A stretch of 47,797 nucleotides of DNA from a virus. Taxonomy: Duplodnaviria; Heunggongvirae; Uroviricota; Caudoviricetes. The notes below the pieces were generated by a model. The model saw only the letters and a program-made list of their open reading frames with translations. It did no database searches and was not told the origin of the DNA. How positions within the stretch are numbered: position 1 is the first letter of the stretch; every line of letters starts with the position of its first letter. Both the position numbers and the translations under genes were made by a program. Of this stretch, positions 4,741 to 29,445 are shown one piece after another. The stretch lies in IMG/VR virus record IMGVR_UViG_2571042438_000008; one strand, 5' to 3'.

Positions 4741-4780
4741 TATGATTGTGGGTGTCTGGTTGGAAAGTGACCAGATATGG

Positions 4781-4861
4781 AAACAAAAAGCCCGCAGATA
4801 AATCTGCGGGCTTCTTGCGACATCCACGGAAAACCAACAACTAACCATGGGCGCCTCGACA
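4781..4861 (-). ncRNA. Candidate CopA-like antisense RNA of the repA leader (~80 nt)
   Basis: Minus-strand perfect -10 TATAAT (plus coords 4868-4873) with weak -35; minus-strand intrinsic terminator (10-bp GC-rich stem 4789-4812 followed by a U-run); lies inside a 16-bp inverted repeat of the leader (4823-4838 / 4875-4890). Confidence 0.45.
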
Positions 4862-4905
4862 ACTCCCATTATACGTTGGTTTTCCGTGGACGCAAGAGCG
4901 AACAT

Positions 4906-5754
4906 ATGGATAGACCAATGCCGTCTCTACGTTCAGCTTACGTTTGTAATTTGTCGCCGGAGTTCCAGCCTCCAAAGCACCATACGCACAAGCTGCCGCT
5001 GGTGTTATCTGATGCTTTACAGCGCATTAATGGGCGTGATCTTACGTGTGAGGTTGCGTTCTACGTTAATCAACCGTCAGAGCGGAAGCGCCGGATAAAC
5101 GAGCATCGTCGTCGGGCGATTAATGCTGTGATCGCTGCGATTTTGCACCATGTAAACATCATTTCTAAGCGGGTTCTGGCCAGTGCTGAGGCGTTGGCTG
5201 ATTTTTGCGGCCTGTCTACCGTATCCGAAGCTGGGAACAAGTCTATAACGCGCTGTACAAGGGCGTTGTCGCAACTGAAAGCGTTAGGTTTTATTGATTA
5301 TGAACGTCGCTGGGATCGGGTGAATAAACAGTATTGGCCAGCGAAAATAGAGATTCGTGATCAACTGCTGGAAACCGTTGGTATTACTGAACAAGCATGG
5401 AGACGTGCGGTTAGCCAGAAACTTAATTACTTCAATGCGAAGAATAGCGAACGGCTTAAAAAAGCGATAACGGAGGCTGATTATAAGCGTATTGTTATTC
5501 AGGAGCAGATGGAGAATGTATGGCATCAGAGGAAGACGGCCAGAGAGATAAAGGCAAAACAGAAAGCAGCGGAGAGAGCTGCGCGTCTTGTTCGGGAAAA
5601 GGGAGAGGCCGAACTTCGTCATCAAATCACTAGAGAGGTTAGCCAGGAATTTGCTGATGGCATGTATCCTGGAGCTGACCTTGCATATTTACGATCCCTC
5701 GTTGAGCAGCGTTATAACAGGTTAAGAAAGACCTGGAAATCACTCCAACATTAA
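4906..5754 (+). CDS. repA: Replication initiator RepA, IncFII (RepFIIA) family
   Basis: Translation aligns with R100/R1 RepA1 as recalled (RRRAINAVIAAIL..., SITRCTRALSQLKALGFIDYE vs SITRATRALTFLSELGLITYQ); start chosen at the in-frame ATG 4906 by length; the ORF is open upstream to 4777. Confidence 0.85.
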   Translation: MDRPMPSLRSAYVCNLSPEFQPPKHHTHKLPLVLSDALQRINGRDLTCEVAFYVNQPSERKRRINEHRRRAINAVIAAILHHVNIISKRVLASAEALADFCGLSTVSEAGNKSITRCTRALSQLKALGFIDYERRWDRVNKQYWPAKIEIRDQLLETVGITEQAWRRAVSQKLNYFNAKNSERLKKAITEADYKRIVIQEQMENVWHQRKTAREIKAKQKAAERAARLVREKGEAELRHQITREVSQEFADGMYPGADLAYLRSLVEQRYNRLRKTWKSLQH

Positions 5755-7141: not shown

Positions 7142-7216
7142 AGCCCCGTTTTTCTTGAAATTATAACCCACAGGTTATATAGTTAGTGATATAAACTACA
7201 GGTTATAGGATTGAGC

Positions 7217-7564
7217 ATGTGGACGGTACTTTTTAGCCAGCGATTTGACGACTGGCTAAATGAGCAAGAAGACGCTCTTCAGGAAAAGGTTTTGGCTGAT
7301 TTGAAAAAGCTACAGGTTTACGGACCTGAGTTACCCAGGCCATATGCCGATACCGTAAAAGGTTCTCGGTACAAAAATATGAAAGAGCTTCGCGTTCAGT
7401 TTTCTGGCCGTCCGATAAGAGCCTTTTATGCGTTCGATCCGATTCGTCGGGCCATCGTTCTTTGTGCAGGAGACAAAAGTAACGATAAGCGGTTTTATAA
7501 AAAACTGGTGCGTATAGCTGAGGATGAGTTTGCAGCACATCTGAACACACTGGAGAGCAAGTAA
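7217..7564 (+). CDS. Type II toxin, HigB/RelE-like (addiction module killer family)
   Basis: ~115 aa basic protein immediately upstream of, and overlapping (TAATG), an XRE-HTH antitoxin-like gene; AGGA RBS before ATG 7217. Confidence 0.55.
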   Translation: MWTVLFSQRFDDWLNEQEDALQEKVLADLKKLQVYGPELPRPYADTVKGSRYKNMKELRVQFSGRPIRAFYAFDPIRRAIVLCAGDKSNDKRFYKKLVRIAEDEFAAHLNTLESK

Positions 7565-7863
7565 TGAGAACATTAGATGAGGTGATTGCCAGCCGTTCAC
7601 CTGAAAGCCAGGCGCGAATTAAAGAAATGGCAGATGAGATGATTCTTGAGGTCGGCTTGCAGATGATGCGTGAAGAACTCCAGTTATCACAAAAACAGGT
7701 TGCTGAGGCGATGGGTATAAGCCAGCCAGCAGTAACAAAGCTGGAGCAGCGCGGAAATGATTTAAAGCTGGCGACATTAAAGCGTTACGTTGAAGCTATG
7801 GGAGGCAAATTAAGCCTGGATGTTGAGCTTCCTACAGGAAAGCGAGTAGCGTTCCATGTCTAA
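7564..7863 (+). CDS. Type II antitoxin, HigA-like XRE-family HTH
   Basis: HTH segment LSQKQVAEAMGISQPAVTKLE; 99 aa; toxin-first gene order. Confidence 0.6.
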   Translation: MRTLDEVIASRSPESQARIKEMADEMILEVGLQMMREELQLSQKQVAEAMGISQPAVTKLEQRGNDLKLATLKRYVEAMGGKLSLDVELPTGKRVAFHV

Positions 7864-7896: not shown

Positions 7897-8181
7897 TTAC
7901 TTACCATTTTTGCGGTTTTTTTCGGACTTCATAAGCTGGCTAACGCGCCCAGGTGTGATATTTAACATGCGGCTTACTTCAGCTTGTGATCCTACTTCCT
8001 CTACTAGCGATGCAACATAGCGAGATTTTCCTGAGGAGGTTAATCCATTATATGTTGCTCGTGCGACTTTTCCCTGAGCTTCTCTCATATCAACTAATGC
8101 CTGAGCAACCTGCTCAAAACCTTTAATTGTTACTTCTGTTAATGCTCGAATAGCATCAATTTCAGATTTTGGTTTAGCCAT
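7897..8181 (-). CDS. Small DNA-binding regulator (C-terminal HTH)
   Basis: C-terminal SQAEVSRMLNITPGRVSQL; divergent from cassette copy 1; dyad just upstream of its start. Confidence 0.45.
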   Translation of the reverse strand: MAKPKSEIDAIRALTEVTIKGFEQVAQALVDMREAQGKVARATYNGLTSSGKSRYVASLVEEVGSQAEVSRMLNITPGRVSQLMKSEKNRKNGK

Positions 8182-8335: not shown

Positions 8336-8448
8336 TATTTATATAATTATAGATTTATATAAAAAGTGCTTTACGGGTGGGAAAAAATTTCCTATGGTTA
8401 TACCCGAAACCGAGCGATACCCGCCCTGGTTAAACCGGAGATAACCCG
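8336..8448 (+). promoter_or_regulatory. Promoter-leader cassette, copy 1 (AT-rich dyad motif, -35 TTTACG 8370-8375, 17-nt spacer, -10 TATGGT 8393-8398, conserved leader, GGAGA RBS)
   Basis: ~88 bp near-identical to 17311-17398 and 24189-24276 (two substitutions seen in this copy); sigma70-like hexamers with 17-bp spacing. Confidence 0.55.
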
Positions 8449-8829
8449 ATGAGCATGATTAAAATCCGCAAAAACGCTTTCCTTAAAATTCAAACTATCC
8501 TGGCTGGTTCTGTCGGCGTGATTTGCCGTTCTTCTTCAAGCCGCATCGATGACGGCTACGATGATGAGTATCGTGTGTCCTCGTGCGATGAGGCTTTAAC
8601 CTGGCTGAAGGAGAATCAGGAACGTGCCCAGGTATATCTGGAAACAGAGAACGGCAATCAGATGCTGCGTATTAGCGGTCGTTATGGATTTGAAACTACA
8701 TTCATGGCCTATTTTAATCAGGCTTACTTTGACAAGGAGCTGGCCTGGTACACTGACCGCATGAGCAAAAGCGAGCCAGCCCCGATTACACCGCCGAACA
8801 ATAAACCATTTTTATTCCTCGTTAAGTAA
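8449..8829 (+). CDS. Hypothetical protein (126 aa), first gene after cassette copy 1
   Basis: ORF with GGAGA RBS 9 nt upstream; no recognisable domain. Confidence 0.5.
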   Translation: MSMIKIRKNAFLKIQTILAGSVGVICRSSSSRIDDGYDDEYRVSSCDEALTWLKENQERAQVYLETENGNQMLRISGRYGFETTFMAYFNQAYFDKELAWYTDRMSKSEPAPITPPNNKPFLFLVK

Positions 8830-9975: not shown

Positions 9976-11175
9976 TTATGGTCTGCTTTTCTGTGCCAGC
10001 TTATCAGCACATGTTTTTATCAGATCCTGTAGTGTCCTGGCTGGCAGGTTTGCATCCAGTACGCTGAGTATGCTGTTGTGATCTGCTTGGTCGACTACTT
10101 TGCCTGTCGGTGGTAGTAGCTTGAGCTGAGGATTCAGGTTTTCGTCAAAGCTGATAAGTGCTCTGGCGTTTCTGAGCAGATCAAGAAGTAAGGCTGATAT
10201 CACATTTTCCTGAGTCATTGCTGGCAGACTTAGCGCCGCTTTGGTTTTCCCTGTTGCCTTGTCAAACTCCTTGATTAGTTCCTTCCTGTAGTTCGGTTCC
10301 GTTAATAGCCGATTATGCTCTGTTGCCGCGCGGATAATCGTTTTTTCCTGGTATAGTCGTTTAGCCAGATCACGCTCGTACTGTGTTTTTAACACGCTGC
10401 TGATAGCGTTAAAGGCTTCAATGTAGGCCAGCTTGATATCTTTCACGCCTGGACCGTCGATGCTCTCCATGAGCAAGGTAAATCCGTCTTTTGTCATGCG
10501 ATAGATTGTTATTTCGCGGTCGCTTCCTTCCAGCGGTCGTTGCTCTTTAAAGAAGTGACGCGCCGCAGCCGTGCGAGGAATGCGTAGCGCATCGATGGCC
10601 ATAACGATGGAATTGTTTGTGGTGCTGAATGCCTGGGCAACATCGGCTGAGGTTGTGAGTGGCTCGTTGTTGCACACTTTAATGTAAAACATCGGTTTGG
10701 CGTTGAGCGTATCGACAACCTCACGAGCATTGCTTGGCGAGACGGTTACGGTCGCGGCCGTTTGCGCGTTCCGGCTGAAATAGCAGTCTTCCAGCCGTTC
10801 GAACACATCCCACGCTTGGTTAGTTTCAAGCATTTTGGCGTGACGTGCAGCCCCGCGTTCTGTCCAGAGAATGAGGGAGCGGGCTTTCGGGGAAATTTGT
10901 AACCCTCTTAAAGATGGTTGCACATTTTGTGAGTTACTTAAAGTAACCCGCAAATTTTGTGAGTGACTTAAAGTCACTCGCAAAGTTTTTAACTCATCGC
11001 CAGCCACTTTGAAAAAATGCTTTCCTTCAATAAAGCGGTTTGCGTTACGTGAGTAATTTTTTTTGATGTTATCAACGTCTGTGCCGTATAGCTTTGCCAG
11101 TAGTTCAGTAGTGATAACGGGGATCTGGTTATGCAGGATAGGCTGTAGGGTGTTAACGGTCGGAAGCGTTTTCAT
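9976..11175 (-). CDS. Antirepressor-like protein (ORF6N/KilA-N-like N-terminus plus Rha-like domain)
   Basis: N-terminal VITTELLAKLYGTDVDNIKKNYSRNANRFIEGKHFFKV and a central Rha-like segment, as recalled; 399 aa. Confidence 0.65.
   Translation of the reverse strand: MKTLPTVNTLQPILHNQIPVITTELLAKLYGTDVDNIKKNYSRNANRFIEGKHFFKVAGDELKTLRVTLSHSQNLRVTLSNSQNVQPSLRGLQISPKARSLILWTERGAARHAKMLETNQAWDVFERLEDCYFSRNAQTAATVTVSPSNAREVVDTLNAKPMFYIKVCNNEPLTTSADVAQAFSTTNNSIVMAIDALRIPRTAAARHFFKEQRPLEGSDREITIYRMTKDGFTLLMESIDGPGVKDIKLAYIEAFNAISSVLKTQYERDLAKRLYQEKTIIRAATEHNRLLTEPNYRKELIKEFDKATGKTKAALSLPAMTQENVISALLLDLLRNARALISFDENLNPQLKLLPPTGKVVDQADHNSILSVLDANLPARTLQDLIKTCADKLAQKSRP
10924..10983. repeat. Two tandem 30-bp repeats inside the antirepressor gene, each carrying a palindrome (GAGTTAC-TTAAA-GTAACCC; GAGTGAC-TTAAA-GTCACTC)
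   Basis: Units 10924-10953 and 10954-10983 differ at 3 positions, two of them compensatory for the inverted repeat; a degenerate third unit lies at ~10893-10923. Confidence 0.7.
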
Positions 11176-11399: not shown

Positions 11400-11658
11400 T
11401 CGAGGCTAATCAAATGGTGGTGAGCCGTACAGGGTTAGCCTTACCGGACACAATGACGAACCGGCGCGGATTTCTCCGCCCCTGTACGACCCACCATAAT
11501 TTGGGCGTAACAGTGCTCTACGCATAAAAAAACCGCTAACGCGGTATGCGCCATCGTGTTATTCAGGAGGCTAATCCCGGCCGTAGATTTTGCTACGGCT
11601 CGGAAAGTGTCCACCAATGGCGCATTTATGTCAATACGGCGGGATTTTAACAGAGACA

Positions 11659-11673
11659 ACCACATAGCGTGGG
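11659..11673. promoter_or_regulatory. Degenerate operator-like dyad ACCAC-ATAGC-GTGGG upstream of the antirepressor operon
   Basis: 9/10 arm match to the ACCAC-N5-GTGGT dyad. Confidence 0.3.
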
Positions 11674-12116
11674 TTTATTGGTAGGCAGAAACAAAAAAAC
11701 CGCCCTATTGAGGACGGTTCTTTCGTGCTGATCGGATTCGCGGTCCTTTCAGCATTACGTTGTTGTATAAACAACCACGCAAGCACAAGCAGCAAGTTAA
11801 TTTTACCCAAAAGGTAATAATAGTCCACTATTATGCTTCAAAAAATTGTGGTTCTTGTTGTGCCTGCAAACTCACAGATTGTGGGTAGGTTACTGATTTT
11901 GTGAAAATAAACGAGTTTTTTCGTTTAATTTCTTTCCTATTACTAATCTTAAAATAATCGTAAAATACCTGTGGACCTTCCCGCCGATTCGCACCCGGGC
12001 ACCGACTTTAGGGGAGGATTCTCCGTTGCCGTACATGCAAGCACAAGCAGCCGTGCTTGCTCTCGCGTTGTTTTCGTCGGTGGGGATGCCGTGAAACGGC
12101 CTGTAAGGGCCATACA

Positions 12117-12239
12117 ATGAAAAAATACTGTATGTGTATTTTTATCGTTGTTACTGGGGCTTTGTTTACGCCACATGGGGAGGGTTGGAAGATTACTGAT
12201 AACGCTCTGAATGTGACGATAAACATTAGCAGCAAGTAG
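12117..12239 (+). CDS. Small hydrophobic peptide (40 aa; MKKYCMCIFIVVTGALF...)
   Basis: ATG 12117 in an otherwise ORF-poor, hairpin-rich region; followed 7 nt later by a strong intrinsic terminator. Confidence 0.3.
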   Translation: MKKYCMCIFIVVTGALFTPHGEGWKITDNALNVTINISSK

Positions 12240-12245
12240 CGATTA

Positions 12246-12268
12246 GGCCCCTTCGGGGGCCTTTTTTT
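12246..12268 (+). terminator. Rho-independent terminator
   Basis: GGCCCC-TTCG-GGGGCC stem-loop followed by T7. Confidence 0.8.
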
Positions 12269-12278
12269 ATGGCTGAAT

Positions 12279-12461
12279 TTAAACGCTGGAGCGCATTAAG
12301 CCTTTCAGAACTGCTTCACGTACCCATTCTGGCCTGGTGGATAGCAGGGCAAATAAGCAGCCAGCTTGCAGCCGTTTGAGGTCGGTTAGACGAGTTTTCA
12401 GTAACCGTGTATATTGTTGCTCGGACATAACAAATTCCCCTTGTTGTGTCGCGACGGCCAA
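12279..12461 (-). CDS. Hypothetical small protein downstream of the partition genes
   Basis: 60-aa ORF co-oriented with parA/parG; weak. Confidence 0.3.
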   Translation of the reverse strand: MAVATQQGEFVMSEQQYTRLLKTRLTDLKRLQAGCLFALLSTRPEWVREAVLKGLMRSSV

Positions 12462-12490
12462 CAGTTGGCGCTGGAGGCCGTCACCTTCTC

Positions 12491-12739
12491 TTACTTCTGG
12501 TTGTATTGAGCCTTGAGTAACTCAAAAGACTTTGTCAGCACTTCTTTCAATGACATATCCATTGAGCTGGCGAACGTTTTGTACTCGCGTTTAAATTCAG
12601 GGTCGACGTTAAACGCCATTTGTGCCCCACCTGATTTGGTTCTGGTTGGCGTTTCAGTCGGGTCGAAAACCTGCGGTTGTTCGATCGATGGCGGTACGCC
12701 TTTGCTGTTCTTCTTTGGTGGTTTTGATGGTGCGGCCAT
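12491..12739 (-). CDS. ParG-like ribbon-helix-helix centromere-binding protein
   Basis: 82 aa; basic N-terminal tail (PSKPPKKNSKG); C-terminal FNVDPEFKREYKTFASSMDMSLKEVLTKSFELLKAQY resembles the ParG/RHH family; directly downstream of parA. Confidence 0.5.
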   Translation of the reverse strand: MAAPSKPPKKNSKGVPPSIEQPQVFDPTETPTRTKSGGAQMAFNVDPEFKREYKTFASSMDMSLKEVLTKSFELLKAQYNQK

Positions 12740-12782
12740 GTGTATCCCCTCTTATATAAATCTATAAAACTATAATTATATA

Positions 12783-13451
12783 TTATGCGGCAGTAGTCAG
12801 AGCCTCAAGCTGGTTGATAATCCCCTGAATAACGTCGTCTGCCTTTTTGCGTGGCGCAACGTATGAGCACTCAATGAGGCTTAAGCCCTTATCCTGAGCT
12901 TTGCTCAGAGCTGGCTTGTGGGGAATGTACTTATCGACAACAAAGTATGGCGTATTAGCCAGGTACTCTTGGGCTTCAATATAGTCAGCTTCGTTTTCAG
13001 CCGCGCCGGAAAACACCATGCAAATTTTCTTGATTGGTACACCCTTTTTAACGATGCCGTGAGCAGTGTTAACGGTGGTTTCCAGGTCATCGGTAGAGAA
13101 TCGGGTTGGCAAAATAACCATATCCAGAAATTCAGATAGCTTCGGTACTGATTCAGATGCGTAGGCACCGCCATCGACGATAACCAGGTCGTATACTTCT
13201 GATTCGATGATTTTCTGGACTTGTGATGGTGTGCCGCACGGCTGCGCCGCGATTGCTGGTTCGATATTGTTGGCCATTCTGCGTTGTACCCAACGCGTTA
13301 CCGTTCCGTTAAGCACATCCATATCGATCAGGCATACATTCCAGCCAGCCTTTGCATAAGCAACTGCTAAAGCACGGGCAATTGTTGATTTGGTTACGCC
13401 GCCTTTTCCGTTGAAAATACCTACAGAGATAGTCATTTGTCGAGGCTCCAT
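12783..13451 (-). CDS. parA: ParA/ParF-type partition ATPase (type Ib)
   Basis: Deviant Walker A GIFNGKGGVTKST; ~220 aa; the true start may be the ATG at 13436, which has a GGAG RBS. Confidence 0.85.
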   Translation of the reverse strand: MEPRQMTISVGIFNGKGGVTKSTIARALAVAYAKAGWNVCLIDMDVLNGTVTRWVQRRMANNIEPAIAAQPCGTPSQVQKIIESEVYDLVIVDGGAYASESVPKLSEFLDMVILPTRFSTDDLETTVNTAHGIVKKGVPIKKICMVFSGAAENEADYIEAQEYLANTPYFVVDKYIPHKPALSKAQDKGLSLIECSYVAPRKKADDVIQGIINQLEALTTAA

Positions 13452-13586
13452 GTGTTTGGTTATATAATTCTATAAATCTATATTTATAGAACGAGGTAAG
13501 CATAACCAACTTTTTGGCTGATGAAAAGCGTTTTATATAATTATATAAATCTATAATCATATAAGCGGGCGTTAGCCCGCTTGCAG

Positions 13587-13961
13587 TCAGAGGTCAGCTA
13601 TCGTTGATATCAGTTGATTTGCTAGCTGTCGCTGTTTACGTGAGAGGGTTAGAGCAGCTTCTGAGCGGTCGCTAAGAGGGGGGGTTTCATCAAGAATCAT
13701 GAGGCATACAGAAATAATAGCCCTGTTATATGCCATCAATGGCTGGCACAGCTTCGATACCGCTGGCACATCGTATTGTAAGGCCGTTTTGAGGCAGACT
13801 TTTTGTTCTGATGCCAGATGAAGGATAGATTCTATCCAGTCGATATCTTTCTCATTATCAATGATTTGGCATAACATACACTCAATCGCTATGTTCAACG
13901 CTTGGATTTCGATTCCAGCAGTGATCAGAGTTTCGTTTTTATTGGCTGTATGTAATTCCAT
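13587..13961 (-). CDS. Hypothetical protein encoded immediately downstream of the repressor gene
   Basis: 124-aa ORF; operator dyad 13997-14011 lies between it and cI; hairpin 13564-13581 after its stop. Confidence 0.45.
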   Translation of the reverse strand: MELHTANKNETLITAGIEIQALNIAIECMLCQIIDNEKDIDWIESILHLASEQKVCLKTALQYDVPAVSKLCQPLMAYNRAIISVCLMILDETPPLSDRSEAALTLSRKQRQLANQLISTIADL

Positions 13962-13996
13962 GCGTAGCCTCTTTTATACTTTTACATGTTGTCAAA

Positions 13997-14011
13997 ACCA
14001 CAAAATGTGGT
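13997..14011. promoter_or_regulatory. Operator dyad ACCACAAAATGTGGT
   Basis: Perfect ACCAC-N5-GTGGT between the cI stop and the 13961 start. Confidence 0.5.
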
Positions 14012-14053
14012 TTTTTTGAGCGTAGAAATGCACGGCTTTCGCCGTGCTGTGTA

Positions 14054-14710
14054 TCATAACCAGTTGACAACACTAACTACGCGGCCAAGAACTTTATAAC
14101 GCTTAAATTCCTCGTTATTCAGATGCTTAGTGTTCATTTCAGCATCCCTTTCGGTTGACAGCATAACAGCATTGTCACCCGGTATGACTCTACAGTGCCT
14201 CAAAACAACCAGGCCATTTCTGTCTTCAAGGGCATAGATCCCCTCATGAATCTCTGTATCGTCTGTATTAATCAGGACTTGGGAGCCTGGGGATATTGTT
14301 GGTGACATTAACTCATCGTTGCTCTGGAGAACTGACAGAGACGATGGGTTGATGTTCTTGCTTCGTAGAATCTCCTGTTCTATCGCCAGCACTGGCTTTT
14401 CTCCGGCGTGCGATGCTATGTCATTTTTTATAGCTACAAGCCCAGGAATAACAGGAGCGTTAGTATTCTGGGGTGGGAACGGGTTATCTGTTAAGCACGC
14501 GATATAAGGCGCTGATGCTTTCAGGGCGTGCGCGATTTTCTTGATGGCAGGTATAGATGGTTGTCTTAATCCGGCCTCATAGTTCTGCAAGGTGCTTAAG
14601 CCTATTCCAGTGACTTGCTGGAGATCTCCGGCAGTCATGCCGGATTGTTTCCGTAGAGTCTGAATGCGCAGACCTATTTCTTTCTTGATGTTCTCGTCGT
14701 TGCTTTTCAT
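14054..14710 (-). CDS. CI-type prophage repressor (N-terminal XRE HTH plus C-terminal S24/LexA-like peptidase domain)
   Basis: HTH-like segment MTAGDLQQVTGIGLSTLQNYEAG; 218 aa with a C-terminal S24-type fold as judged from the translation; divergent from the cro-like gene with operators between. Confidence 0.85.
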   Translation of the reverse strand: MKSNDENIKKEIGLRIQTLRKQSGMTAGDLQQVTGIGLSTLQNYEAGLRQPSIPAIKKIAHALKASAPYIACLTDNPFPPQNTNAPVIPGLVAIKNDIASHAGEKPVLAIEQEILRSKNINPSSLSVLQSNDELMSPTISPGSQVLINTDDTEIHEGIYALEDRNGLVVLRHCRVIPGDNAVMLSTERDAEMNTKHLNNEEFKRYKVLGRVVSVVNWL

Positions 14711-14747
14711 GTCTCATCAATCGTGAATGGTGGGTTATTTATACATT

Positions 14748-14762
14748 ACCACATTTAGTGGT
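14748..14762. promoter_or_regulatory. Operator dyad ACCACATTTAGTGGT (cI-proximal)
   Basis: Perfect ACCAC-N5-GTGGT in the cI/cro-like intergenic region. Confidence 0.6.
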
Positions 14763-14829
14763 TTTCACATGGTAAGACGAGAGGTGGACCACAAATAGAA
14801 GGTTATTTTTTGTTTCGCCCATTGAAAAA

Positions 14830-14865
14830 CTCACGATATGTGGTTTTAATACCACGTATCGTGGT
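14830..14865. promoter_or_regulatory. Two adjacent operator dyads (CTCACGATATGTGGT 14830-14844; ACCACGTATCGTGGT 14851-14865), cro-like proximal
   Basis: Tandem dyads with 21-bp centre spacing just upstream of the 14885 start. Confidence 0.6.
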
Positions 14866-14884
14866 TTTAACTGGAGTTCGTTAA

Positions 14885-15379
14885 ATGACCTTTCAGGAGT
14901 GGGTTGACGAAAATGGAGGCCAAATTGGTGTTGCCAGAAAGTTTTGCTTTACGTCATCACTGATTGGTGCCTGGTATCGCTTCGAGAGATTCCCTCGTGC
15001 GGATAACCTGACGCTGCTGGTGGCGTATTCGGAAGGCCGGATTAACGTCCAGCAATGGGCGGCAGATTTTGCCGAACGTCAGCGCCAGCGTAGCGATGGC
15101 ACATCGGTTCGGCAGAACAAGATCAAAGGGAATCTCCCTGTTAACTGCTTATCAAGGCTGAAAGCGGTTTTCTCTGAGCTGGGGATGCCTGCGGAGCGTT
15201 GCAATCTACGCGGTCCGCGATTCATTGCTCGCTGGAAACACTCACACGTAACCGTTTCAGAGGTTCGTGATGCGATTACCGTGCTGGAGCTTAAGAATAA
15301 AGATTCCAGCGATATCGAGCTGATTCATAAGGAGATTAGCAACGCCCGGCGTTCAGCACTTGGGAGGCTTGAGGAATGA
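14885..15379 (+). CDS. Cro-like early regulator (putative)
   Basis: First gene of the rightward operon divergent from cI; N-terminal segment GGQIGVARKFCFTSSLIGAW resembles Cro/YdaS-type HTH. Confidence 0.4.
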   Translation: MTFQEWVDENGGQIGVARKFCFTSSLIGAWYRFERFPRADNLTLLVAYSEGRINVQQWAADFAERQRQRSDGTSVRQNKIKGNLPVNCLSRLKAVFSELGMPAERCNLRGPRFIARWKHSHVTVSEVRDAITVLELKNKDSSDIELIHKEISNARRSALGRLEE

Positions 15380-17286: not shown

Positions 17287-17404
17287 AATCTATAAATATA
17301 TAATTATAGATTTATATAAAAAGTGCTTTACAGGTGGGAAAAAATTTCCTATGGTTATACCCGAAACCGAGCGATACCCGCCCTGGTTAAACCGGAGAAA
17401 TCTG
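17287..17404 (+). promoter_or_regulatory. Promoter-leader cassette, copy 2 (dyad AAATCTATA-N12-TATAGATTT, -35 TTTACA 17327-17332, -10 TATGGT 17350-17355, conserved leader, GGAGA RBS)
   Basis: Near-identical to copies 1 and 3 over ~88 bp; 17-bp spacer. Confidence 0.55.
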
Positions 17405-18472
17405 ATGAATAAACAAGTAATTATTTCTGACTGGATCAACAACCCTAACAGCCTGTTAAGCACTGATACTGGCTACCTATTACGCCATGTTAATGGTCGT
17501 ATGGTCAAAAGCGATGAGCACGAAACCTTTTTCTTTGTTGAAGACGATGGGCGTATCTATGAGGATGGTTACTCTTATGAAGCCCAAACTGGTTGTATCC
17601 CTGCGGAGCTGGTGGACGTAACAGAAGATCTGCGCAAAGCATGGCTTGAACAGCAGCAGCGCGGAGATGATTACGTAAACACCTATCAGGAACGCCAGAA
17701 CGCGCGTCTTGCCCGATATATTGCTCGTGCAGAAAAAGCCAGAAAAGAAGGTGCGGTAGCGCATAAGCGAGCGCATGACCTGTTGGATGTGATCCCGTTA
17801 GGCCAGCCGATTTTAGTTGACCATTATAGCGCGAAAGGCCATCGCCGCCGTTTGTCTAAAGCTGATGCGTTATTCAGAAAAGCGTTTGTTGAATGCGAAA
17901 GTAAAGCATCACACTACGAGAGCAAAGCCGCAGGTGTTGGTCGTAATGGAATTTCGTCTGATGATCCTGATGCGCTATTTAAGTTGCTTCGTAAGCTGCA
18001 AGGCTGCATGAAGTCACACGTCAAAATGAAGGCCGCAAATAAGGCCATTCGCAAATACAAAAAAGACCAAATACAGCAGCTTTCTGCATTAATCGATCTC
18101 AGGTTTACAGAAAGCGAAGCCAAAGAGTTACTGGCCGGAGATTTCTGTGGGCACATCGGATTCCCTTCATACGCACTGAGCAACAATAACGCCGAAATCA
18201 AACGACTACAGAGCCGTATTAAGGAGCTTGAATCGGTCAAGTCTGTAACAGGAGCACAGCGCGAAGAATACGACGGCTTTTCTATGGAGATAGATCCAGA
18301 GGATAACCGCATCCTGTTTTATTTCCCTGGCAAACCAGAGGCAAACATTCGTTCGCTGCTTAAATCACGCGCCTTTAAGTGGAGTCCAACCCGTAATGCA
18401 TGGGTTCGCAAGATTACTCCAAACGCCCTGGCTGATGCCCGATATCTAAAAGAATCGCTATTGAAAGCCTGA
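17405..18472 (+). CDS. Large hypothetical protein (355 aa), first gene after cassette copy 2
   Basis: Start set at ATG 17405 (GGAGA RBS); the upstream ATG 17351 lies in the conserved leader. Confidence 0.6.
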   Translation: MNKQVIISDWINNPNSLLSTDTGYLLRHVNGRMVKSDEHETFFFVEDDGRIYEDGYSYEAQTGCIPAELVDVTEDLRKAWLEQQQRGDDYVNTYQERQNARLARYIARAEKARKEGAVAHKRAHDLLDVIPLGQPILVDHYSAKGHRRRLSKADALFRKAFVECESKASHYESKAAGVGRNGISSDDPDALFKLLRKLQGCMKSHVKMKAANKAIRKYKKDQIQQLSALIDLRFTESEAKELLAGDFCGHIGFPSYALSNNNAEIKRLQSRIKELESVKSVTGAQREEYDGFSMEIDPEDNRILFYFPGKPEANIRSLLKSRAFKWSPTRNAWVRKITPNALADARYLKESLLKA

Positions 18473-18482
18473 CAGTAAGCCT

Positions 18483-18504
18483 ACGGCGGGACGTCTCCCG
18501 CCGT
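18483..18504 (+). terminator. GC-rich hairpin after 17405..18472
   Basis: CGGCGGGA-CGTC-TCCCGCCG stem-loop; weak U tract. Confidence 0.35.
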
Positions 18505-18528
18505 ATATAGAATTATATATTTATACAA

Positions 18529-18831
18529 ATGTATAAGGACGCCTCGACAATGAAACGCAAAATTATTAACCCCCAAGATGTGATTAATTTCCTGACCGAT
18601 CACCCATGTTCAAAAGTGGACGTAATCGCGGAGCACATTGGTGTGTCGCAGAACTCTATGCGTTGCAGACTGAGAAGCATGGTTGCCGAAGGACAGATAA
18701 CAACCAGGAAAATAAATGGTTGCCTGTACTACTCCGCTAAACCGGAATTGCCATTTGGCATGAATCCTAACTCCATGTTGTTTAACACCTTATTAGCCAA
18801 AGTTAAGCCGTTGAGAGGGGCTGTGGCATGA
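18529..18831 (+). CDS. Putative winged-HTH protein
   Basis: 100-aa ORF; DVIAEHIGVSQNSMRCRLRSM resembles an HTH. Confidence 0.4.
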   Translation: MYKDASTMKRKIINPQDVINFLTDHPCSKVDVIAEHIGVSQNSMRCRLRSMVAEGQITTRKINGCLYYSAKPELPFGMNPNSMLFNTLLAKVKPLRGAVA

Positions 18832-22906: not shown

Positions 22907-23030
22907 TACCGCCTGTGATTGGGTAAAGCCCATCTACCTGACTGATCACGATATCGATGTTATGGACCGCCAGACAAAGAAAGATATTCTGGCTCATAAC
23001 AGGGCATGGGAAATCAACTGCCCCAAGTAA
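22821..23030 (+). CDS. o-spanin (Rz1-like lipoprotein), partly nested in the i-spanin gene in the +1 frame
   Basis: Lipobox LIASC after a hydrophobic N-terminus; starts inside 22628..22906. Confidence 0.6.
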   Translation: MYIRVLTIWLMTMLIASCGSRGSVPVVVDTACDWVKPIYLTDHDIDVMDRQTKKDILAHNRAWEINCPK

Positions 23031-23199
23031 TATATATTTCTATAATTATATAAATATATAGTTACAACATTCTATGCGCTTTTCTCATGGGCGCACGCAT
23101 CAACCATGTTTGTCTGATATGCCGCCGCGCCCAAAAATCCTGAATTTATTGGCTGGGATTTTCGTGCGCGGCGCCACACCAGACAAACAGATCAAATAT

Positions 23200-23275
23200 G
23201 GCCCCTTAGCTCAGTGGTTAGAGCAGGCGACTCATAATCGCACGGTCATCGGTTCAAATCCGGTAGGGGCCACCA
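23200..23275 (+). tRNA. tRNA with CAU anticodon (Met or Ile2/lysidine type), 76 nt including CCA
   Basis: Cloverleaf elements readable: acceptor GGCCCCT/AGGGGCC, D-arm AGCTCAGTGGTTAGAGC, anticodon loop CTCATAA, T-arm GGTTCAAATCC, 3' CCA; close to E. coli tRNA-Ile2 as recalled. Confidence 0.85.
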
Positions 23276-23482
23276 ATTCACTCTCACACATAAAGATAAG
23301 CGCGGTGGAGTTACTTCCTTCGTGCTCATCTTTATGCGTGCCTGGTGCGCATTTCGGGCGAACGTGGGGCTAAGTTACAGGCAGGGCCTGTTATCCGCAA
23401 AGGGGTAAAAGCTGGAGCGGCACGGAACTGTAGCCGTGTTACCAAAACAGCGTTGTCGGGCGATATCCGGCACACAACAGGC

Positions 23483-23583: not shown

Positions 23584-24171
23584 ATGGAGGCAATTGCATT
23601 GTTTAATCTGATTTATGCAGATCCCCCCTGGGAATACAAAGATAAGTGTAAGGATGGGAATCGTGGAGCTGGTTTTAAGTATCCAACGATGAAAGCTGAG
23701 GATATTGCTCGTATTCCTGTCTGGCAGCTTGCTAATCCTGAATCGTGTTTGTTGGCCATGTGGTGGGTTCCGACTCAGCCAGAAGAAGCGTTGCTGGTGG
23801 TGAAAGCATGGGGATTCAGGCTTATGACCATGAAGGGCTTCACATGGAACAAATGTGGTAGCCGACAACCAGATAAGCTGGTGATGGGGATGGGGCATAT
23901 GACTCGTGCAAACAGTGAAGATTGCTTGTTTGCGGTAAAAGGCAAATTGCCGACCCGCCTTGATGCGGGGATCATTCAGTCGTTTACATCGCCTCGTCTG
24001 GAGCATTCTCGGAAGCCTGATGTGGTTCGTGACAAGCTGGTAAGGCTGTTAGGTGATGTTCCTCGTATTGAGCTGTTTTCTCGCGGTGATTTACCTGATG
24101 GTTGGCATGGCTGGGGCAACCAGTGCAATGGAGGTATCCAGTTGCATGATGCTCTCTGGCAAGTGGCATAA
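23584..24171 (+). CDS. MT-A70-family N6-adenine methyltransferase
   Basis: DPPW motif (LIYADPPWEY) and family-typical N-terminal layout. Confidence 0.8.
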   Translation: MEAIALFNLIYADPPWEYKDKCKDGNRGAGFKYPTMKAEDIARIPVWQLANPESCLLAMWWVPTQPEEALLVVKAWGFRLMTMKGFTWNKCGSRQPDKLVMGMGHMTRANSEDCLFAVKGKLPTRLDAGIIQSFTSPRLEHSRKPDVVRDKLVRLLGDVPRIELFSRGDLPDGWHGWGNQCNGGIQLHDALWQVA

Positions 24172-24282
24172 AATTATATAATTATATATTTATATAAAAA
24201 GTGCTTTACAGGTGGGAAAAAATTTCCTATGGTTATACCCGAAACCGAGCGATACCCGCCCTGGTTAAACCGGAGAAATCTG
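24171..24282 (+). promoter_or_regulatory. Promoter-leader cassette, copy 3 (-35 TTTACA 24205-24210, -10 TATGGT 24228-24233, conserved leader, GGAGA RBS)
   Basis: Near-identical to copies 1 and 2. Confidence 0.55.
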
Positions 24283-24552
24283 ATGAAAGTACAAGACCGT
24301 GAAGTAGTAAAAAACCTCCTGCAATACCTGACCTCAAAAAACCTGACGGGCAGCGTTGAGTTCCGTGAAGCGTTAAAACATTTCAACGTCACTACGGTTT
24401 ATCGTTGGGAAAACAAACATTCTGAAAGACCGTATGTGGTGGATGTTTTTGCGCCTGATATTGAGTGCGGTTTTGAGCGTCATTCGTTCAAGGAGAAACA
24501 TTCTGCTGATTTTTTTTGTGAGGTTGTATGTGCGGCAGGAGATGATGAGTGA
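24283..24552 (+). CDS. Hypothetical protein (90 aa), first gene after cassette copy 3
   Basis: Start set at ATG 24283; the upstream ATG 24229 lies in the conserved leader. Confidence 0.5.
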   Translation: MKVQDREVVKNLLQYLTSKNLTGSVEFREALKHFNVTTVYRWENKHSERPYVVDVFAPDIECGFERHSFKEKHSADFFCEVVCAAGDDE

Positions 24553-25591: not shown

Positions 25592-25921
25592 ATGCGTATC
25601 AGTGAAGAGTGGGGAGAAGTACAAGCCCGTGCTCAGTATGCAAATGGCGAAAACCAGTATTTGATTCACTATCAGGCGGCTGATGGTCGTGCTACCACAG
25701 AGTGGTTCGGTGAATCGATGTTGATTGCGATGGAAGATGATCGTTATCCAGGCTGCCCTGTTTTTGCCTGTGTTGATTTGCCAGAAGGCGCGGTACTTGA
25801 AGACGACAAAGAAGAATGCTCGTCTGATGGCGAACTTGTCATTACCGGAATCGTTGATGGTAAGCCGGAATACTCTCGTATTGAGGTAAATAACGGCCGC
25901 ATCCGTTTGATCCCTGCGTAA
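25592..25921 (+). CDS. Hypothetical acidic protein
   Basis: 109-aa ORF. Confidence 0.4.
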   Translation: MRISEEWGEVQARAQYANGENQYLIHYQAADGRATTEWFGESMLIAMEDDRYPGCPVFACVDLPEGAVLEDDKEECSSDGELVITGIVDGKPEYSRIEVNNGRIRLIPA

Positions 25922-26155
25922 CGCATTACAGCAGCTCTTGTGCTTATCAGGGGCTGCGATAATGCGCAAACCAAAGCTGCCTCATTAACTCCAGCTCGCT
26001 GTGGAGTTAATGCTGGTGGCTTTTTTATTACTGGAAGGTGGGCGACCGCCGTCAGTTGCGACCTGACGACAGTCATTCATACCCACAGGGTGCCGTGGAT
26101 ACAAACCGAGGCCCACTTGCTTGCACAAGCGAGGGGATTTTAGCGGATAAACGGC

Positions 26156-26779
26156 ATGACAAAACATCTTAATGTGGTTTCTTTACCACTTTCTGTGTTG
26201 ATTGGTTATGAAAAGAACGCTCGCACACACTCCGTGGAGCAGGTAGATCAGATTGTTGCCAGCATACAGGAGTACGGATGGACTAATCCGATCCTGATAG
26301 ACGAGAACAACGTTGTAATTGCTGGTCATGGTCGAATTGCTGCGGCCACTCAGTTGGGGATGGATGAGGTTCCCTGCATTGTTCTGGAAGGGCTAACGGA
26401 GAATCAGAAGAAGGCATATCGTCTGGCCGACAACCGTATTCCGCTGAATGCTGGTTGGGATGAAGAGTTGTTAAGCGCGGAGCTTGCAGATCTTGCGGCC
26501 GATGATTTTGCTCTGGACTCAATTGGTTTTACTCAGCGCGAACTGGATAACTTATTGAGTGCGGCGGTCTACGATGACACAGAGGGTATGGATATCCCAT
26601 TTGAGAAGGATGAGGCCAAATCAGGCGTAAAAGTTCAGTACCTGTCATTTGGAGGTCATAAAATCCCGGCAACGGATGAGGAAGCGGATCGTTTTGACTG
26701 CGCGGTGTCTCGTTATGTTGATGATAATGGCAGCTATATCGGATTTGTATCCGCATTGCTGGCTGGGGAGGTGTGCTGA
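26156..26779 (+). CDS. ParB N-terminal (ParB/Srx nuclease-like) domain protein, paralog 1
   Basis: LIDENNVVIAGHGRIAAATQLGMDEVPCIVL; paralogous to 29446..30036. Confidence 0.7.
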   Translation: MTKHLNVVSLPLSVLIGYEKNARTHSVEQVDQIVASIQEYGWTNPILIDENNVVIAGHGRIAAATQLGMDEVPCIVLEGLTENQKKAYRLADNRIPLNAGWDEELLSAELADLAADDFALDSIGFTQRELDNLLSAAVYDDTEGMDIPFEKDEAKSGVKVQYLSFGGHKIPATDEEADRFDCAVSRYVDDNGSYIGFVSALLAGEVC

Positions 26780-28152
26780 TGCTTCACCTCAATTACGACA
26801 TAACGCACCTACGCGGCGCGGAATATAACCCGCGTTTTATCGGTGAGGATGATCTTGCGAGGCTGGCGGAAAGCGTCAGGGAGCTGGGGCTTGTGAAGCC
26901 ATTGATAGTGCGCGGCGATTTGCTGGTGGCGGGACACCAAAGGACGAAGGCGCTACGTAAGTTGGGAATAACGCGTGCTGCGGTGTATGTGTTGCCCTGT
27001 GAAACGACGGTATACGACGAAGTACGGTTTAACCAACTGCATAACGGAACGGATTTTGATAGCGGAGATGAGCGTTGCAGGGTGTCCGGTCTGGAAGATA
27101 AGCATGGTTTTGTTCAGGTATCGGCAAGCCAGATCTCAGGCAATATGCGCGCGAAAATGGCATATGTTCGAAAGAACATAGCGGAACTGGTTATCAAGTA
27201 TGGTCCGTGGGGTGGTTGTGTTGCTACTCAGTCTGGCGAGGTTATTCACTGTGCTCAGTATGCATTAGCAGCGAAGATGACGCGCACACCGCTAACGGTG
27301 TTTGTGATCCCTGATGTTGAGAAGGAAAAATACCAAAGTTATCTGAATAAAACTTATGGTGTATTTGAGTATTCTCATCTGGAGAAAACAACATACATCC
27401 AGACGTATGCGCAGCTTATGCGGTTGCGTAATGGTGGCAGCCTGAAATCAAACCTGTATGAGTCGTTGATCCTCCCGATCATTGCCAAGACGCCAAGAGG
27501 AATTGATTTTGGTTCGGGGCAGGGAGACTACGCGCGAATGCTCAGGGCAAAGGGATATAACCTGCATGATCTCGAGCTTTTCCGCCGTAAGGGCGCTGGA
27601 AACACTCTGGATAGGACCGCAACAAACCGGATGATTGATACGCTGGTGGACGACTTAAAAACGCGAGGGCGTTACGACTACGTGATTTGCGATAGCGTTT
27701 TGAACTCGGTCGATAGTGTCGAGGCTGAATGGTCCGTTCTGACGGTTCTGAAAGGCTTGTGTAAAGCTGGTGGGTCAATATTCTTTTCTGGCCGTAGCCG
27801 TGGAGAGCTGGAAACCGTCCTGAAACAAACACAAGCGGCGAGTTCCAAAAGCCGGCTTTATTTTATTGATCATAACGGTTTTACCGCGTTGTACCGGAAG
27901 GGGCACTGGTTTTACCAGAAGTTTCACTCTGATGATGAAGTGAAGCAGTTGTGTCGTGTACATGGTTTCAGGATTAAGCGGTCAATATTCAACTGTAAGA
28001 GCTGGTATTTGCACGTCATTAACGATGATTCCCTTAGTTGGGCGAGTCTGGAGAAAGCTGTTCGTTTTGAGTTTGAGTTGCCGTTGCCTGGTGGTTCAAC
28101 AATCGGACGATCTGATGATGTGCTGGCGGCTTTCCGGCCGTTGATTAAGTAG
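26773..28152 (+). CDS. ParB N-terminal domain fused to a putative SAM-dependent methyltransferase domain
   Basis: N-terminal LVKPLIVRGDLLVAGHQRTKALRKLG (ParB-like); glycine-rich IDFGSGQGDYARML (motif I-like); no DPPY/NPPY seen. Confidence 0.55.
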   Translation: MLMLHLNYDITHLRGAEYNPRFIGEDDLARLAESVRELGLVKPLIVRGDLLVAGHQRTKALRKLGITRAAVYVLPCETTVYDEVRFNQLHNGTDFDSGDERCRVSGLEDKHGFVQVSASQISGNMRAKMAYVRKNIAELVIKYGPWGGCVATQSGEVIHCAQYALAAKMTRTPLTVFVIPDVEKEKYQSYLNKTYGVFEYSHLEKTTYIQTYAQLMRLRNGGSLKSNLYESLILPIIAKTPRGIDFGSGQGDYARMLRAKGYNLHDLELFRRKGAGNTLDRTATNRMIDTLVDDLKTRGRYDYVICDSVLNSVDSVEAEWSVLTVLKGLCKAGGSIFFSGRSRGELETVLKQTQAASSKSRLYFIDHNGFTALYRKGHWFYQKFHSDDEVKQLCRVHGFRIKRSIFNCKSWYLHVINDDSLSWASLEKAVRFEFELPLPGGSTIGRSDDVLAAFRPLIK

Positions 28153-28168
28153 TGTGTAGGAGGCGCTG

Positions 28169-28888
28169 GTGGCTGACAGAATTGAGATAAAGATGGATTT
28201 TTCTTCTCAGGATATTCAACGACAACTCCAGCGCCTTGAAGAACGCGAATTGCCGTTCGCAATGGCGCTTGCGGCAACCAGAACGGCAAAGGCTTCTCAG
28301 GCTGCGATTAAGAATGAAATTAATCGGGTATTTGACAGGCCCACGCCGTGGATTCAGAACTCTACTTACGTTTTGGCCGCAAAGAAGAGTGATCCTACAG
28401 CCATTGTGTATGCTCGTGAATGGGGAGGAACGCCAGCCCCTGTAACGTTGACTCCGCAAATCGAAGGTGGACAACGACAGTACAAACGCTCAGAAGGGGC
28501 GCTAAGGGCTGGTGGATATTTGCCTAACGGCTGGCAGCTTGCTCCTGGTCCCGGTGCAAAGCTGGACAAATACGGGAATATTTCGCGGGGGCAATTACAG
28601 CAGGTCTTATCTGGCCTAAGAGTTCAGCGAGATGCGCATCAAAATCGCCGTCAGGGCAAGCCTACGGAGTTTTTTGTTGTTCGACCTGGTACAAGTAACC
28701 CGCTTCAACCAGGCGTCTGGCAGCGCGTTGGGCGGCGTCCTACGTTGATCCTTACGTTTATCCAGCAACCTAACTATTCGCAGCGTCTTGATTGGCATGG
28801 CGTGGCGCTGCGTGCTGGTGAGGATGCGTTTGCTGATGAAGTCACAAAGGCTATTGATGACATTCTTTCTAAGACTTTCTCTCGTTAA
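28169..28888 (+). CDS. Hypothetical protein
   Basis: 239-aa ORF after the ParB-methyltransferase fusion. Confidence 0.45.
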   Translation: MADRIEIKMDFSSQDIQRQLQRLEERELPFAMALAATRTAKASQAAIKNEINRVFDRPTPWIQNSTYVLAAKKSDPTAIVYAREWGGTPAPVTLTPQIEGGQRQYKRSEGALRAGGYLPNGWQLAPGPGAKLDKYGNISRGQLQQVLSGLRVQRDAHQNRRQGKPTEFFVVRPGTSNPLQPGVWQRVGRRPTLILTFIQQPNYSQRLDWHGVALRAGEDAFADEVTKAIDDILSKTFSR

Positions 28889-29445
28889 TCATCGTGTGGT
28901 TGATGGTGTTGTTATGCAGAGTGTATTCACTGTGTTCTGTAGCGTCGCTCGCTGGCTGTCTGTGGGTGGGCACGAGCATCGTTTCATCGTCCGGCAGAAT
29001 TGGGTCCTTCTGGCCAAAAGCGTTGGATGCGGGTCATTCGAACCCCGATGTTCGGCTAGCTAAACGTGAAAAAAGTTAGGTTAAAAGTTGCGGTAAAAGA
29101 AATTTACCCATCTCATTGAAAAATATTGGGAAAACGTGATTTTTTGCTGTGCTTGTGATGGTGAAAAGAAAGTAGAGAATTTTCTTTTAGATCATCAAGA
29201 TACGCGCAGATCTTTAACCAATGCAAGGCTGTTTTGATAAAAATCTTTATAAATCATGCAAATACATCCAATCTTTTAACCAAAACACCATCGGAAGATC
29301 CTTTTTACTTATAAAAACTTAATAAAACCAGATAATTATGCTGGTTTGTGTGATTTTTTATGAGTAAAAAGATCGTCATTTTTCTCTTTTAGTATCAATA
29401 AGTTAAACATTTTTCTTTAACCTGTTGTGTTATGGCGGTTAAAAA

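Follow-up and report, generated by a model that had tools for sequence, protein, structure and literature searches.

The window, meaning the whole 47,797-nucleotide stretch IMGVR_UViG_2571042438_000008, carries on its minus strand a partition (par) operon in which parA is followed by a gene for a protein of 82 amino acids (aa). The operon is accompanied by eight short repeat arrays, designated S1 to S8. Three lie at par and five in other intergenic regions, a spread over partition and unrelated operons that is, at the sequence level, of the type known for the omega protein of pSM19035. An earlier note had listed the eight sites as copies of a dispersed AT-rich motif, and each of them was recovered where it had been placed.

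Positions 12000-15000 are 100% identical to Escherichia coli plasmid p142_C (47.5 kb). This interval matched 61 plasmids, 58 of them at 95-100% identity; they are non-mobilizable, and those listed are 47-49 kb. Three Yersinia phage records are 98% identical to the same interval, and near-identical par regions have been deposited as Yersinia phages. RefSeq annotates a virion module of myovirus type along with lysis genes, a CI-like repressor, RepA, and a ParA gene with "hypothetical" genes after it. Because of the plasmid matches together with the virion, lysis, RepA and ParA annotation, the window (~47.8 kb) is identified by its sequence as an E. coli phage-plasmid. Its repA gene lies at 4777-5754 (in relatives, RepA belongs to the IncFII_repA type). 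All eight arrays fall inside the 8-24 kb "plasmid/early" part, and the virion module has none. The arrays, the genes of the operon and the promoters beside them are as follows.

8339-8362, plus strand: S1, array of 3 units (TTATATAA TTATAGAT TTATATAA), heading cassette copy 1
8370-8398, plus strand: cassette promoter copy 1, TTTACG-17-TATGGT
12491-12739, minus strand: 82-aa gene, whose product, the proposed array binder, has a disordered basic N-terminal tail (conserved K-x3-KG-x-PP) and a predicted strand-helix-helix (ribbon-helix-helix, RHH) domain
12752-12783, minus strand: S2, array of 4 units, following the parA stop codon and preceding the Shine-Dalgarno (SD) sequence of the 82-aa gene
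12783-13436, minus strand: parA, encoding a 217-aa small Walker-type partition ATPase without an N-terminal helix-turn-helix (HTH)
13460-13491, minus strand: S3, array of 4 units, downstream of the proposed parA -10 and upstream of the parA SD
13499-13527, minus strand: proposed parA promoter, TTTTCA-17-TATGCT, from alignment with relatives, sandwiched between S4 and S3
13533-13564, minus strand: S4, array of 4 units, immediately past the hairpin 3' of a 124-aa gene
17288-17319, plus strand: S5, array of 4 units, heading cassette copy 2, 5' of the DUF3560 gene (17405-18472)
17327-17355, plus strand: cassette promoter copy 2, TTTACA-17-TATGGT
18505-18536, plus strand: S6, array of 4 more degenerate units, after the hairpin 3' of the DUF3560 gene
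23030-23061, orientation ambiguous: S7, array of 4 units, separating the end of the lysis module from a tRNA-Met/DNA methyltransferase segment
24174-24197, plus strand: S8, array of 3 units, beginning 3 nt past the methyltransferase stop codon and heading cassette copy 3
24205-24233, plus strand: cassette promoter copy 3, TTTACA-17-TATGGT

Repeat arrays at par and at other promoters

Each of the eight sites is made up of three or four 8-bp units in uninterrupted tandem, which match the register TTATAKAW with 0-1 mismatch and have the consensus TTATA(G/T)A(T/A). Units are found in both orientations (TTATAGAT or ATCTATAA), and TTATATAA equals its own reverse complement. The form first proposed for the motif, a 12-mer next to a 10-mer, gives way to an 8-bp iteron; the dyad noticed at S5 exists, as two inverted units followed by two direct ones, and is incidental.

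The arrays do not occur at random. TATA-N4-TATA was found 24 times in the window, every time within the eight sites, and the triple form TATA-N4-TATA-N4-TATA 12 times, against 0.72 +/- 0.88 and 0.003, respectively, in whole-window dinucleotide shuffles. Shuffling only the 90 bp around each site, with AT content kept, yielded 0.29 copies of TATA-N4-TATA (maximum, 3), so that local AT richness, the explanation that would have undone the original proposal of a binding-site family, is ruled out as the cause of the motif. At one mismatch or less, TATAAATCTATA has 13 matches (12 of them within the eight sites) where 0.30 are expected. TATA triples with periods of 6, 7, 9 or 10 bp, 7-bp-period arrays, and in-phase arrays of at least three units beyond the eight sites were all absent from the window, and within it 28-bp stretches of at least 90% A+T occur only at seven of the eight sites. 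Motif-like 8-mers also cluster loosely at 7175-7210; most of them are out of 8-bp phase (spacings of 12 and 16 bp), and they were excluded from the arrays.

Read along the minus strand, the par locus consists of a hairpin, S4, ~45 bp, S3, an SD, parA (13436-12783), S2, an SD and the 82-aa gene (12739-12491). S4 sits 5 bp 5' of the proposed parA -35, and the start of S3, which is downstream of that promoter in an operator-like position, is 73 bp from the start of S4; S2 ends 1 nt before the G-rich SD (GAGGGG) of the 82-aa gene. The proposed -10 aligns with TATCAT of close relatives, and clear sigma-70 promoters occupy this place in distant ones. With S4, S3 and S2 flanking parA and the 82-aa gene, iterated repeats lie beside the operon as in the operators and centromeres of type Ib partition systems, so far as sequence can tell. 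ParA likewise has the dimensions of a type Ib ATPase, a small Walker-type protein (~200-220 aa) with no N-terminal DNA-binding domain. It matches CbiA, ParA and MipZ in Pfam, and its residues 5-206 align to positions 2-200 of the 203-position NCBIfam profile ParA_partition with 78.6 bits, under the cut-off of 180. Because the arsenite ATPase ArsA was its sole PDB match at 1e-5, with no partition ATPase such as ParF, it has no close solved relative.

G+C-rich hairpins (13565-13586 and 18483-18503) immediately precede S4 and S6, and likewise the equivalent arrays in relatives; they were rejected as intrinsic terminators, having no T tract. The best sigma-70 consensus match of the region, TTGGCT-16-TATAAT (10/12), is on the plus strand at 13514-13541, and its -10 is a unit of S4. 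It would read antisense into the 124-aa and CI-like genes and may be due to chance because the units contain TATAAT. The arrays were also considered as sigma-70 promoters themselves, and this was rejected as the main explanation: transcripts driven by TATAAG or TATAAC at array ends would be almost leaderless, a matching -35 is missing, and relatives do not generally share the arrangement.

Outside par, S1 lies between a divergent 94-aa HTH gene (7897-8181, minus strand) and a 126-aa gene (8449-8829). S1, S5 and S8 open a ~112-bp segment, of which they take up the initial 24-32 bp. It is present three times (8337-8451, 17294-17407 and 24172-24285), identical from array to start codon, and precedes three unrelated genes, namely the 126-aa gene, the primase-like DUF3560 gene and an 89-aa gene (24283-24552). 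This cassette runs array, A5 tract, TTTAC(A/G)-17-TATGGT, 50-nt leader, GGAG and ATG, which places the array at approximately -42 to -65 of its promoter. The 17-bp promoter spacer holds a palindrome, GGAAA-AAA-TTTCC (GGGAAAAAATTTCC), found within the window only in the three cassettes. The fold of the leader RNA is unremarkable (z = -1.65), and no Rfam family was detected there. Of 5,426 complete E. coli genomes, 74 carry the cassette; 214 of its 217 places are on plasmids (listed records mostly 47-51 kb).

The last unit of S6 covers a putative SD (AAGGA) of a MarR-like gene, listed at 18529-18831, whose ATG is put by the sequence ~14 nt past the end of S6. About 140 bp 3' of S7 is a tRNA-Met gene (anticodon CAT; 23200-23275), with a DNA methyltransferase gene then at 23584-24171; the mechanically called open reading frame 23074-23373 overlaps the tRNA gene and is probably no gene. 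The placement noted earlier is borne out: parA has two arrays 5' of it and one between it and the 82-aa gene, and three arrays head the triplicated cassette. S6 comes after a hairpin and S7 after lysis genes.

Related loci and the unit that changes with the RHH protein

Viral contigs were scanned with a ParA alignment, giving 80 loci, of which ~40 have an RHH-family member after parA; a subset was read in detail (the loci and plasmid records compared carry numbers with an L prefix). ParA of these ~40 loci is 30-55% identical to that of the window. At the loci read in detail the order is array, sigma-70 promoter, array, SD, parA, often a third array, SD and RHH gene, and the promoters lying between arrays include TTGCAC-17-TATACT, TTTACA-17-TATTAT and TTGATG-17-TATACT. 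The position equivalent to S2 holds lineage-specific arrays in L002, L008, L009 and L026-L047. Among close relatives (RHH protein 79-90% identical) S4 and S3 are nearly invariant while the ~45 bp between them diverge except for the -10 (TATGCT versus TATCAT), and S3 is kept in L003-L006 while the adjoining spacer diverges.

Every related array has a period of 8 bp, and the unit varies by lineage: ATATAAAT, AATCTTTA, ATAACGCT, AAGCTATA, TTAACGAA, TTAAAGAA, TTAGCTAA and TTGACGCA were all found. The units share the register TTAnnGAn, which the window's TTATAGAT fits. In a Salmonella plasmid with a type IV secretion system (T4SS; ParA 46% identical), TATAAACC/TATAATTA arrays lie 5' of parA and before the small gene, and an extra array directly precedes virB10. 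A Halomonas phage-plasmid (ParA 39%) has ATAACGCT/AGCACGCA arrays at the same two positions and ACGC arrays at four further intergenic sites, and a Pseudomonas avellanae plasmid (ParA 37%) has units AATAACGC and TATGACGC. The array unit co-varies with a residue in the predicted DNA-reading strand of the RHH protein (N44 in the window), as follows.

Strand motif FNVD: unit TTATAGAT (window) or TAAAGATT (L022)
Strand motif NFKVD or NFKPE: unit TTAA(A/C)GAA
Strand motif NFRVD or NLRVP: units containing ACGC
Strand motif LLL(R/Q)LD: unit ATATAAAT

The parA-RHH pair and its arrays are also present on plasmids without annotated phage genes, namely L012 (the T4SS plasmid, whole record) and L009 (a Pseudomonas MOBQ plasmid, 3.6-kb stretch). 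Arrays outside par appear, from the related sequences, to be a trait of the family. Within +/-10 kb, related viral contigs have approximately 1-6 clear non-par arrays, with block-shuffle controls of 0.25-2 for G+C-containing units; at loci with AT-rich units only long, clear arrays were counted. In L020, L023 and L025 (ParA identity 53-55%), a promoter cassette is present in 2-4 copies, each headed by a non-par array. After the array come an A5 tract, a -35, a 17-bp spacer in which the palindrome AGGAC-TAAAA-GTCCT lies, TATTAT, a conserved leader, GAGGAG and ATG. The -35 is TTGCAT in most L025 copies and variable in other copies and loci. By its layout this cassette is the counterpart of the triplicated cassette of the window, and the spacer palindromes in both suggest a second operator protein besides the array binder. 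For the palindrome of the window, the HTH proteins encoded at 7564-7863, 7897-8181 and 14054-14710 are candidate binders.

A site analogous to S6 was found in L004, L005, L020, L023 and L025. In the window, parA (13436-13449, minus strand) and the MarR-like gene after S6 (~18540-18552, plus strand) have a common translation start region, GCCTCGACAA(A)TG. This string is likewise found before both genes in the distant L020, L023 and L025, as if S6 and its leader had been copied from S3 and the parA leader.

The 82-aa protein and competing explanations

A word-indexed homologue search with the 82-aa protein returned relatives of at least 79% identity only, and an exhaustive HMMER search ~100 remote homologues, nearly all of 60-100 aa (a few longer). 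The consensus of 66 aligned members is MA..P.K...KG.PP, a variable linker, and LNFKV..EF.REFK.FA...DMSM..LL...FE. Among these 66, Pfam matches were to RHH_10 in 24, to Antitox_RHH in 16 and to ParG in 4 (at E <= 0.1); by the same kind of profile test the 82-aa protein itself falls outside the ParG family (PF09274). In the PDB the family profile matched ParG best (1P94; E = 0.2), and hhalign gave 66.8% probability to ParG over the whole strand-helix-helix region, using a ParG sequence whose residues 27-66 agree with the PDB match. An AlphaFold model (AF2, 66-sequence alignment) has residues 1-40 disordered, 41-46 extended, and helices at 47-59 and 64-80; its best 10-residue blocks have a mean pLDDT (predicted confidence) of 88-93, and its topology is that of an RHH monomer. 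As direct matches and fold matches are lacking, the RHH assignment rests on family-level profiles and predicted topology, from which the 82-aa protein probably has an RHH fold remotely like that of ParG.

Because the arrays travel with the parA-RHH pair and ParA lacks a domain for specific DNA binding, the RHH protein appears by far the best candidate binder. We consider it likely (probability about 75%), from the sequence comparisons and by analogy with characterized systems, that the eight arrays are specific sites of the 82-aa RHH protein, serving as operator and centromere iterons of a type Ib system, and that the protein is also a wider regulator. A ParG-like RHH protein acting at centromere or operator had been among the binders suggested in the earlier note, and the conserved layout and the unit that changes with RHH lineage favor it.

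Several points weigh against this interpretation. The 82-aa protein itself had no sequence match in Pfam (E <= 1), NCBIfam or the PDB, its strand is not formed in the monomer model, and both fold searches with its models gave nothing useful. The parA promoter call is weak in the window (4/6 and 4/6) and was missed by a consensus scan. AT-rich units give a high background in the word-based scan (controls of 4.5-15; L020, L023, L025 and L035). The arrays at S1, S5 and S8 lie 5' of the -35 with no downstream array, which makes activation or mere tethering possible there, and arrays of at least 90% A+T would also attract host H-NS, Fis or IHF.

That the arrays instead bind another element-encoded regulator, whether the 94-aa HTH protein, the MarR-like protein, the CI-like protein (14054-14710) or a late activator, is improbable. 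S1 is indeed next to the 94-aa HTH gene and S6 just before the MarR-like one, yet in L012 and L009, where the loci read show none of these genes, the parA-RHH pair is flanked by arrays of the same build. Tandem 8-bp units of mixed orientation fit an RHH protein and not dimeric HTH repressors, which recognize 14-20-bp palindromes, and for an HTH protein the palindrome of the cassette spacer is the better candidate site. The 94-aa regulator and the late activator, both put forward earlier as binders, are not needed: the arrays accompany parA-RHH where the loci read show no phage genes.

Slightly less probable still is that RNA polymerase reads the arrays directly through its alpha subunits, as UP elements or flexible AT-rich DNA intrinsic to the promoters, with no dedicated protein. 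An UP-like element had been the other original suggestion, and the part of it that survives is the A5 tract between array and -35, which resembles a proximal UP subsite. The arrays themselves are at least 90% A+T, and S1, S4, S5 and S8 are suitably placed, at approximately -40 to -70 of sigma-70-type promoters. The position fits these four only, however, since S2, S3 and S6 adjoin ribosome-binding sites and S3 is downstream of the proposed -10. Strict 8-bp phasing is no property of UP elements, the G+C-containing 8-bp units that relatives hold in these places (for example, ATAACGCT and TTAGCTAA) cannot be UP elements, and co-variation of the unit with the RHH strand speaks against an intrinsic element.

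AT-rich DNA with TpA steps is a known preference of H-NS, and the extreme A+T content and many TpA steps of the arrays would suit sites of host nucleoid proteins (H-NS, Fis or IHF) that silence or shape acquired AT-rich DNA. As a full explanation this ranks a shade lower again, for it leaves unexplained the exact 8-bp register and limitation to eight sites, the conservation of arrays against diverging flanks, the G+C-containing equivalents in relatives and the co-variation of unit and strand; binding of nucleoid proteins could coexist with that of the RHH protein. Finally, replication iterons for RepA, suggested by the short tandem repeats typical of iteron origins, and recombination or packaging sites are most improbable, as no array adjoins repA and the arrays track parA-RHH across loci rather than the replicon.

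Other features were noted in the window apart from the arrays. At 7211-7863, a Gp49/HigB-like gene and, after it, an HTH (HigA-like) gene resemble a toxin-antitoxin pair. Rfam matches above the gathering score were obtained at 11413-12267 for C4 antisense RNA (11413-11501, minus strand), isrK (11526-11599, minus strand) and ryfA (11971-12267, plus strand); they adjoin a Rha/antirepressor-like gene (9976-11175, minus strand), an arrangement resembling P1/P7 immI. Three proteins with ParB/Srx N-terminal domains, separate from parA-RHH, are encoded at 26156-30036 just 5' of the terminase genes (annotation of the near-identical p142_C). In the distantly related Halomonas phage-plasmid (L011; NZ_CP080628.1), a reverse transcriptase/maturase-family gene and a WYL-domain gene lie among tail genes at 25638-26696.

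Proposed mechanism, known systems and significance

By analogy with ParG and omega, one RHH dimer would bind each 8-bp unit with cooperative contacts between neighbors, so that three to four dimers coat an array. At par, where S4 abuts the parA -35, S3 covers the transcript start and S2 precedes the RHH gene, binding would bring about autorepression of parA-RHH; the same three arrays with their protein would form the partition complex, or centromere, with the conserved basic N-terminal tail contacting ParA. The RHH protein would also bind the five non-par arrays, at the cassettes (S1, S5 and S8), the MarR-like gene (S6) and the tRNA/methyltransferase segment (S7), making a partition protein the dose-dependent regulator of a small regulon. 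At S1, S5 and S8 the bound array would abut the A5 tract, the putative proximal UP-like subsite, and hinder alpha-subunit contacts, repression being the simplest outcome. Genes so repressed would be expressed in a burst on entry into a cell without the protein and then shut off, and we infer that repression is the most probable action on promoters that fire on such entry.

The closest likeness is to ParF-ParG-parH/OF of TP228, in which one ParG dimer binds each 4-bp box, boxes are separated by 4-bp AT-rich spacers, and the arrays are both operator and centromere (PMC3130281). Both systems have a small ParA-type ATPase followed by a protein of ~80 aa with a flexible N-terminal tail and an RHH domain (here predicted), and both have an 8-bp period (4-bp box plus 4-bp spacer) with direct and inverted sites 5' of the operon (PMC3130281); ParG is, moreover, the structure that the 82-aa family profile matched best. 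The sequence relation is nevertheless remote, with no Pfam ParG match for the window's protein and no ParF match in the PDB for its ParA. The ParG box is ACTC, whereas the boxes of the window are AATC/GATT or TATA at the same period. The window's arrays have 3-4 units (versus 8 plus 12), stand on either side of the promoter and between the two genes, and are joined by five more over 16 kb at other promoters, whereas the TP228 sites are described only 5' of parFG (PMC3130281).

In delta-omega of the Gram-positive inc18 plasmid pSM19035, one omega dimer binds each 7-bp heptad, and arrays at the copS, delta and omega promoters are the parS sites (PMC3074150). Here too an RHH centromere binder has an unstructured N-terminal tail that communicates with the ATPase, and contiguous short repeats in both orientations lie at the promoters of several operons, including those of non-partition genes (PMC3074150). 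The differences are that omega heptads (WATCACW) come in arrays of 7-10 and the 8-bp units of the window in arrays of 3-4, that no sequence relation to the window's protein is detectable, and that the host range is another. Omega controls copy control and toxin-antitoxin genes, whereas the arrays of the window lie at the cassette, the MarR-like gene and the tRNA/methylase segment.

The phage-plasmid N15 resembles the window in being a prophage-plasmid whose partition protein binds separate sites, four centromeres designated IR1-IR4, rather than one tandem array (PMC7205306). Its SopAB system differs in being type Ia, with an HTH protein (ParB/SopB), 16-bp inverted repeats and spreading, where the window's system is, judging from its sequence, type Ib with RHH iterons. 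The N15 sites are reportedly near phage regulatory regions, and Sop is said to affect late gene expression (Ravin and co-workers). MetJ is an RHH repressor that binds two to five contiguous 8-bp metboxes, one dimer per unit with cooperative contacts, and is thus alike in its tandem 8-bp units; it differs as a chromosomal metabolic repressor with a co-repressor, with no partition role and no N-terminal tail. Partition combined with regulation is also known from KorB of RK2, a partition protein and global regulator, and from StbA, which has repeated sites. StbA of R388 is a plasmid segregation protein that also regulates several operons (bioRxiv 10.1101/2022.04.29.490116). Both are like the 82-aa protein as proposed here in that a segregation protein doubles as regulator, and differ in their HTH folds, other site types and occurrence on conjugative plasmids rather than phage-plasmids. 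Literature searches on the motif, the ParA/RHH family, related Yersinia phages and type Ib phage-plasmid systems turned up no prior description, most subscription journals lying outside their coverage.

A broader picture can be offered tentatively, with the odds somewhat against it. In a widespread, hitherto undescribed type Ib family on phage-plasmids and plasmids of Proteobacteria, the RHH protein would be a copy-number-sensing master regulator. The lineage-specific 8-bp arrays would be dispersed centromeres as well as operators on multi-copy cassettes of "establishment" genes (such as those for the primase-like DUF3560 protein, the tRNA/methyltransferase segment and small proteins), which would be expressed on entry into a naive cell and turned off as the protein accumulates, and one strand residue (N, K or R) would set iteron specificity.

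An 82-aa "hypothetical protein" and eight unannotated intergenic sites thereby gain a concrete, testable function. If the proposed binding is true, plasmid partition would be tied to transcriptional control of phage-plasmid genes, as is known for omega in Gram-positive plasmids and, differently, for N15. The comparative set is a natural series of approximately ten unit types paired with strand variants, usable for studying DNA reading by RHH proteins and the divergence of incompatibility groups, and the strand residue (N, K or R) would, if the pairing is causal, be a simple recognition code that could be re-engineered.

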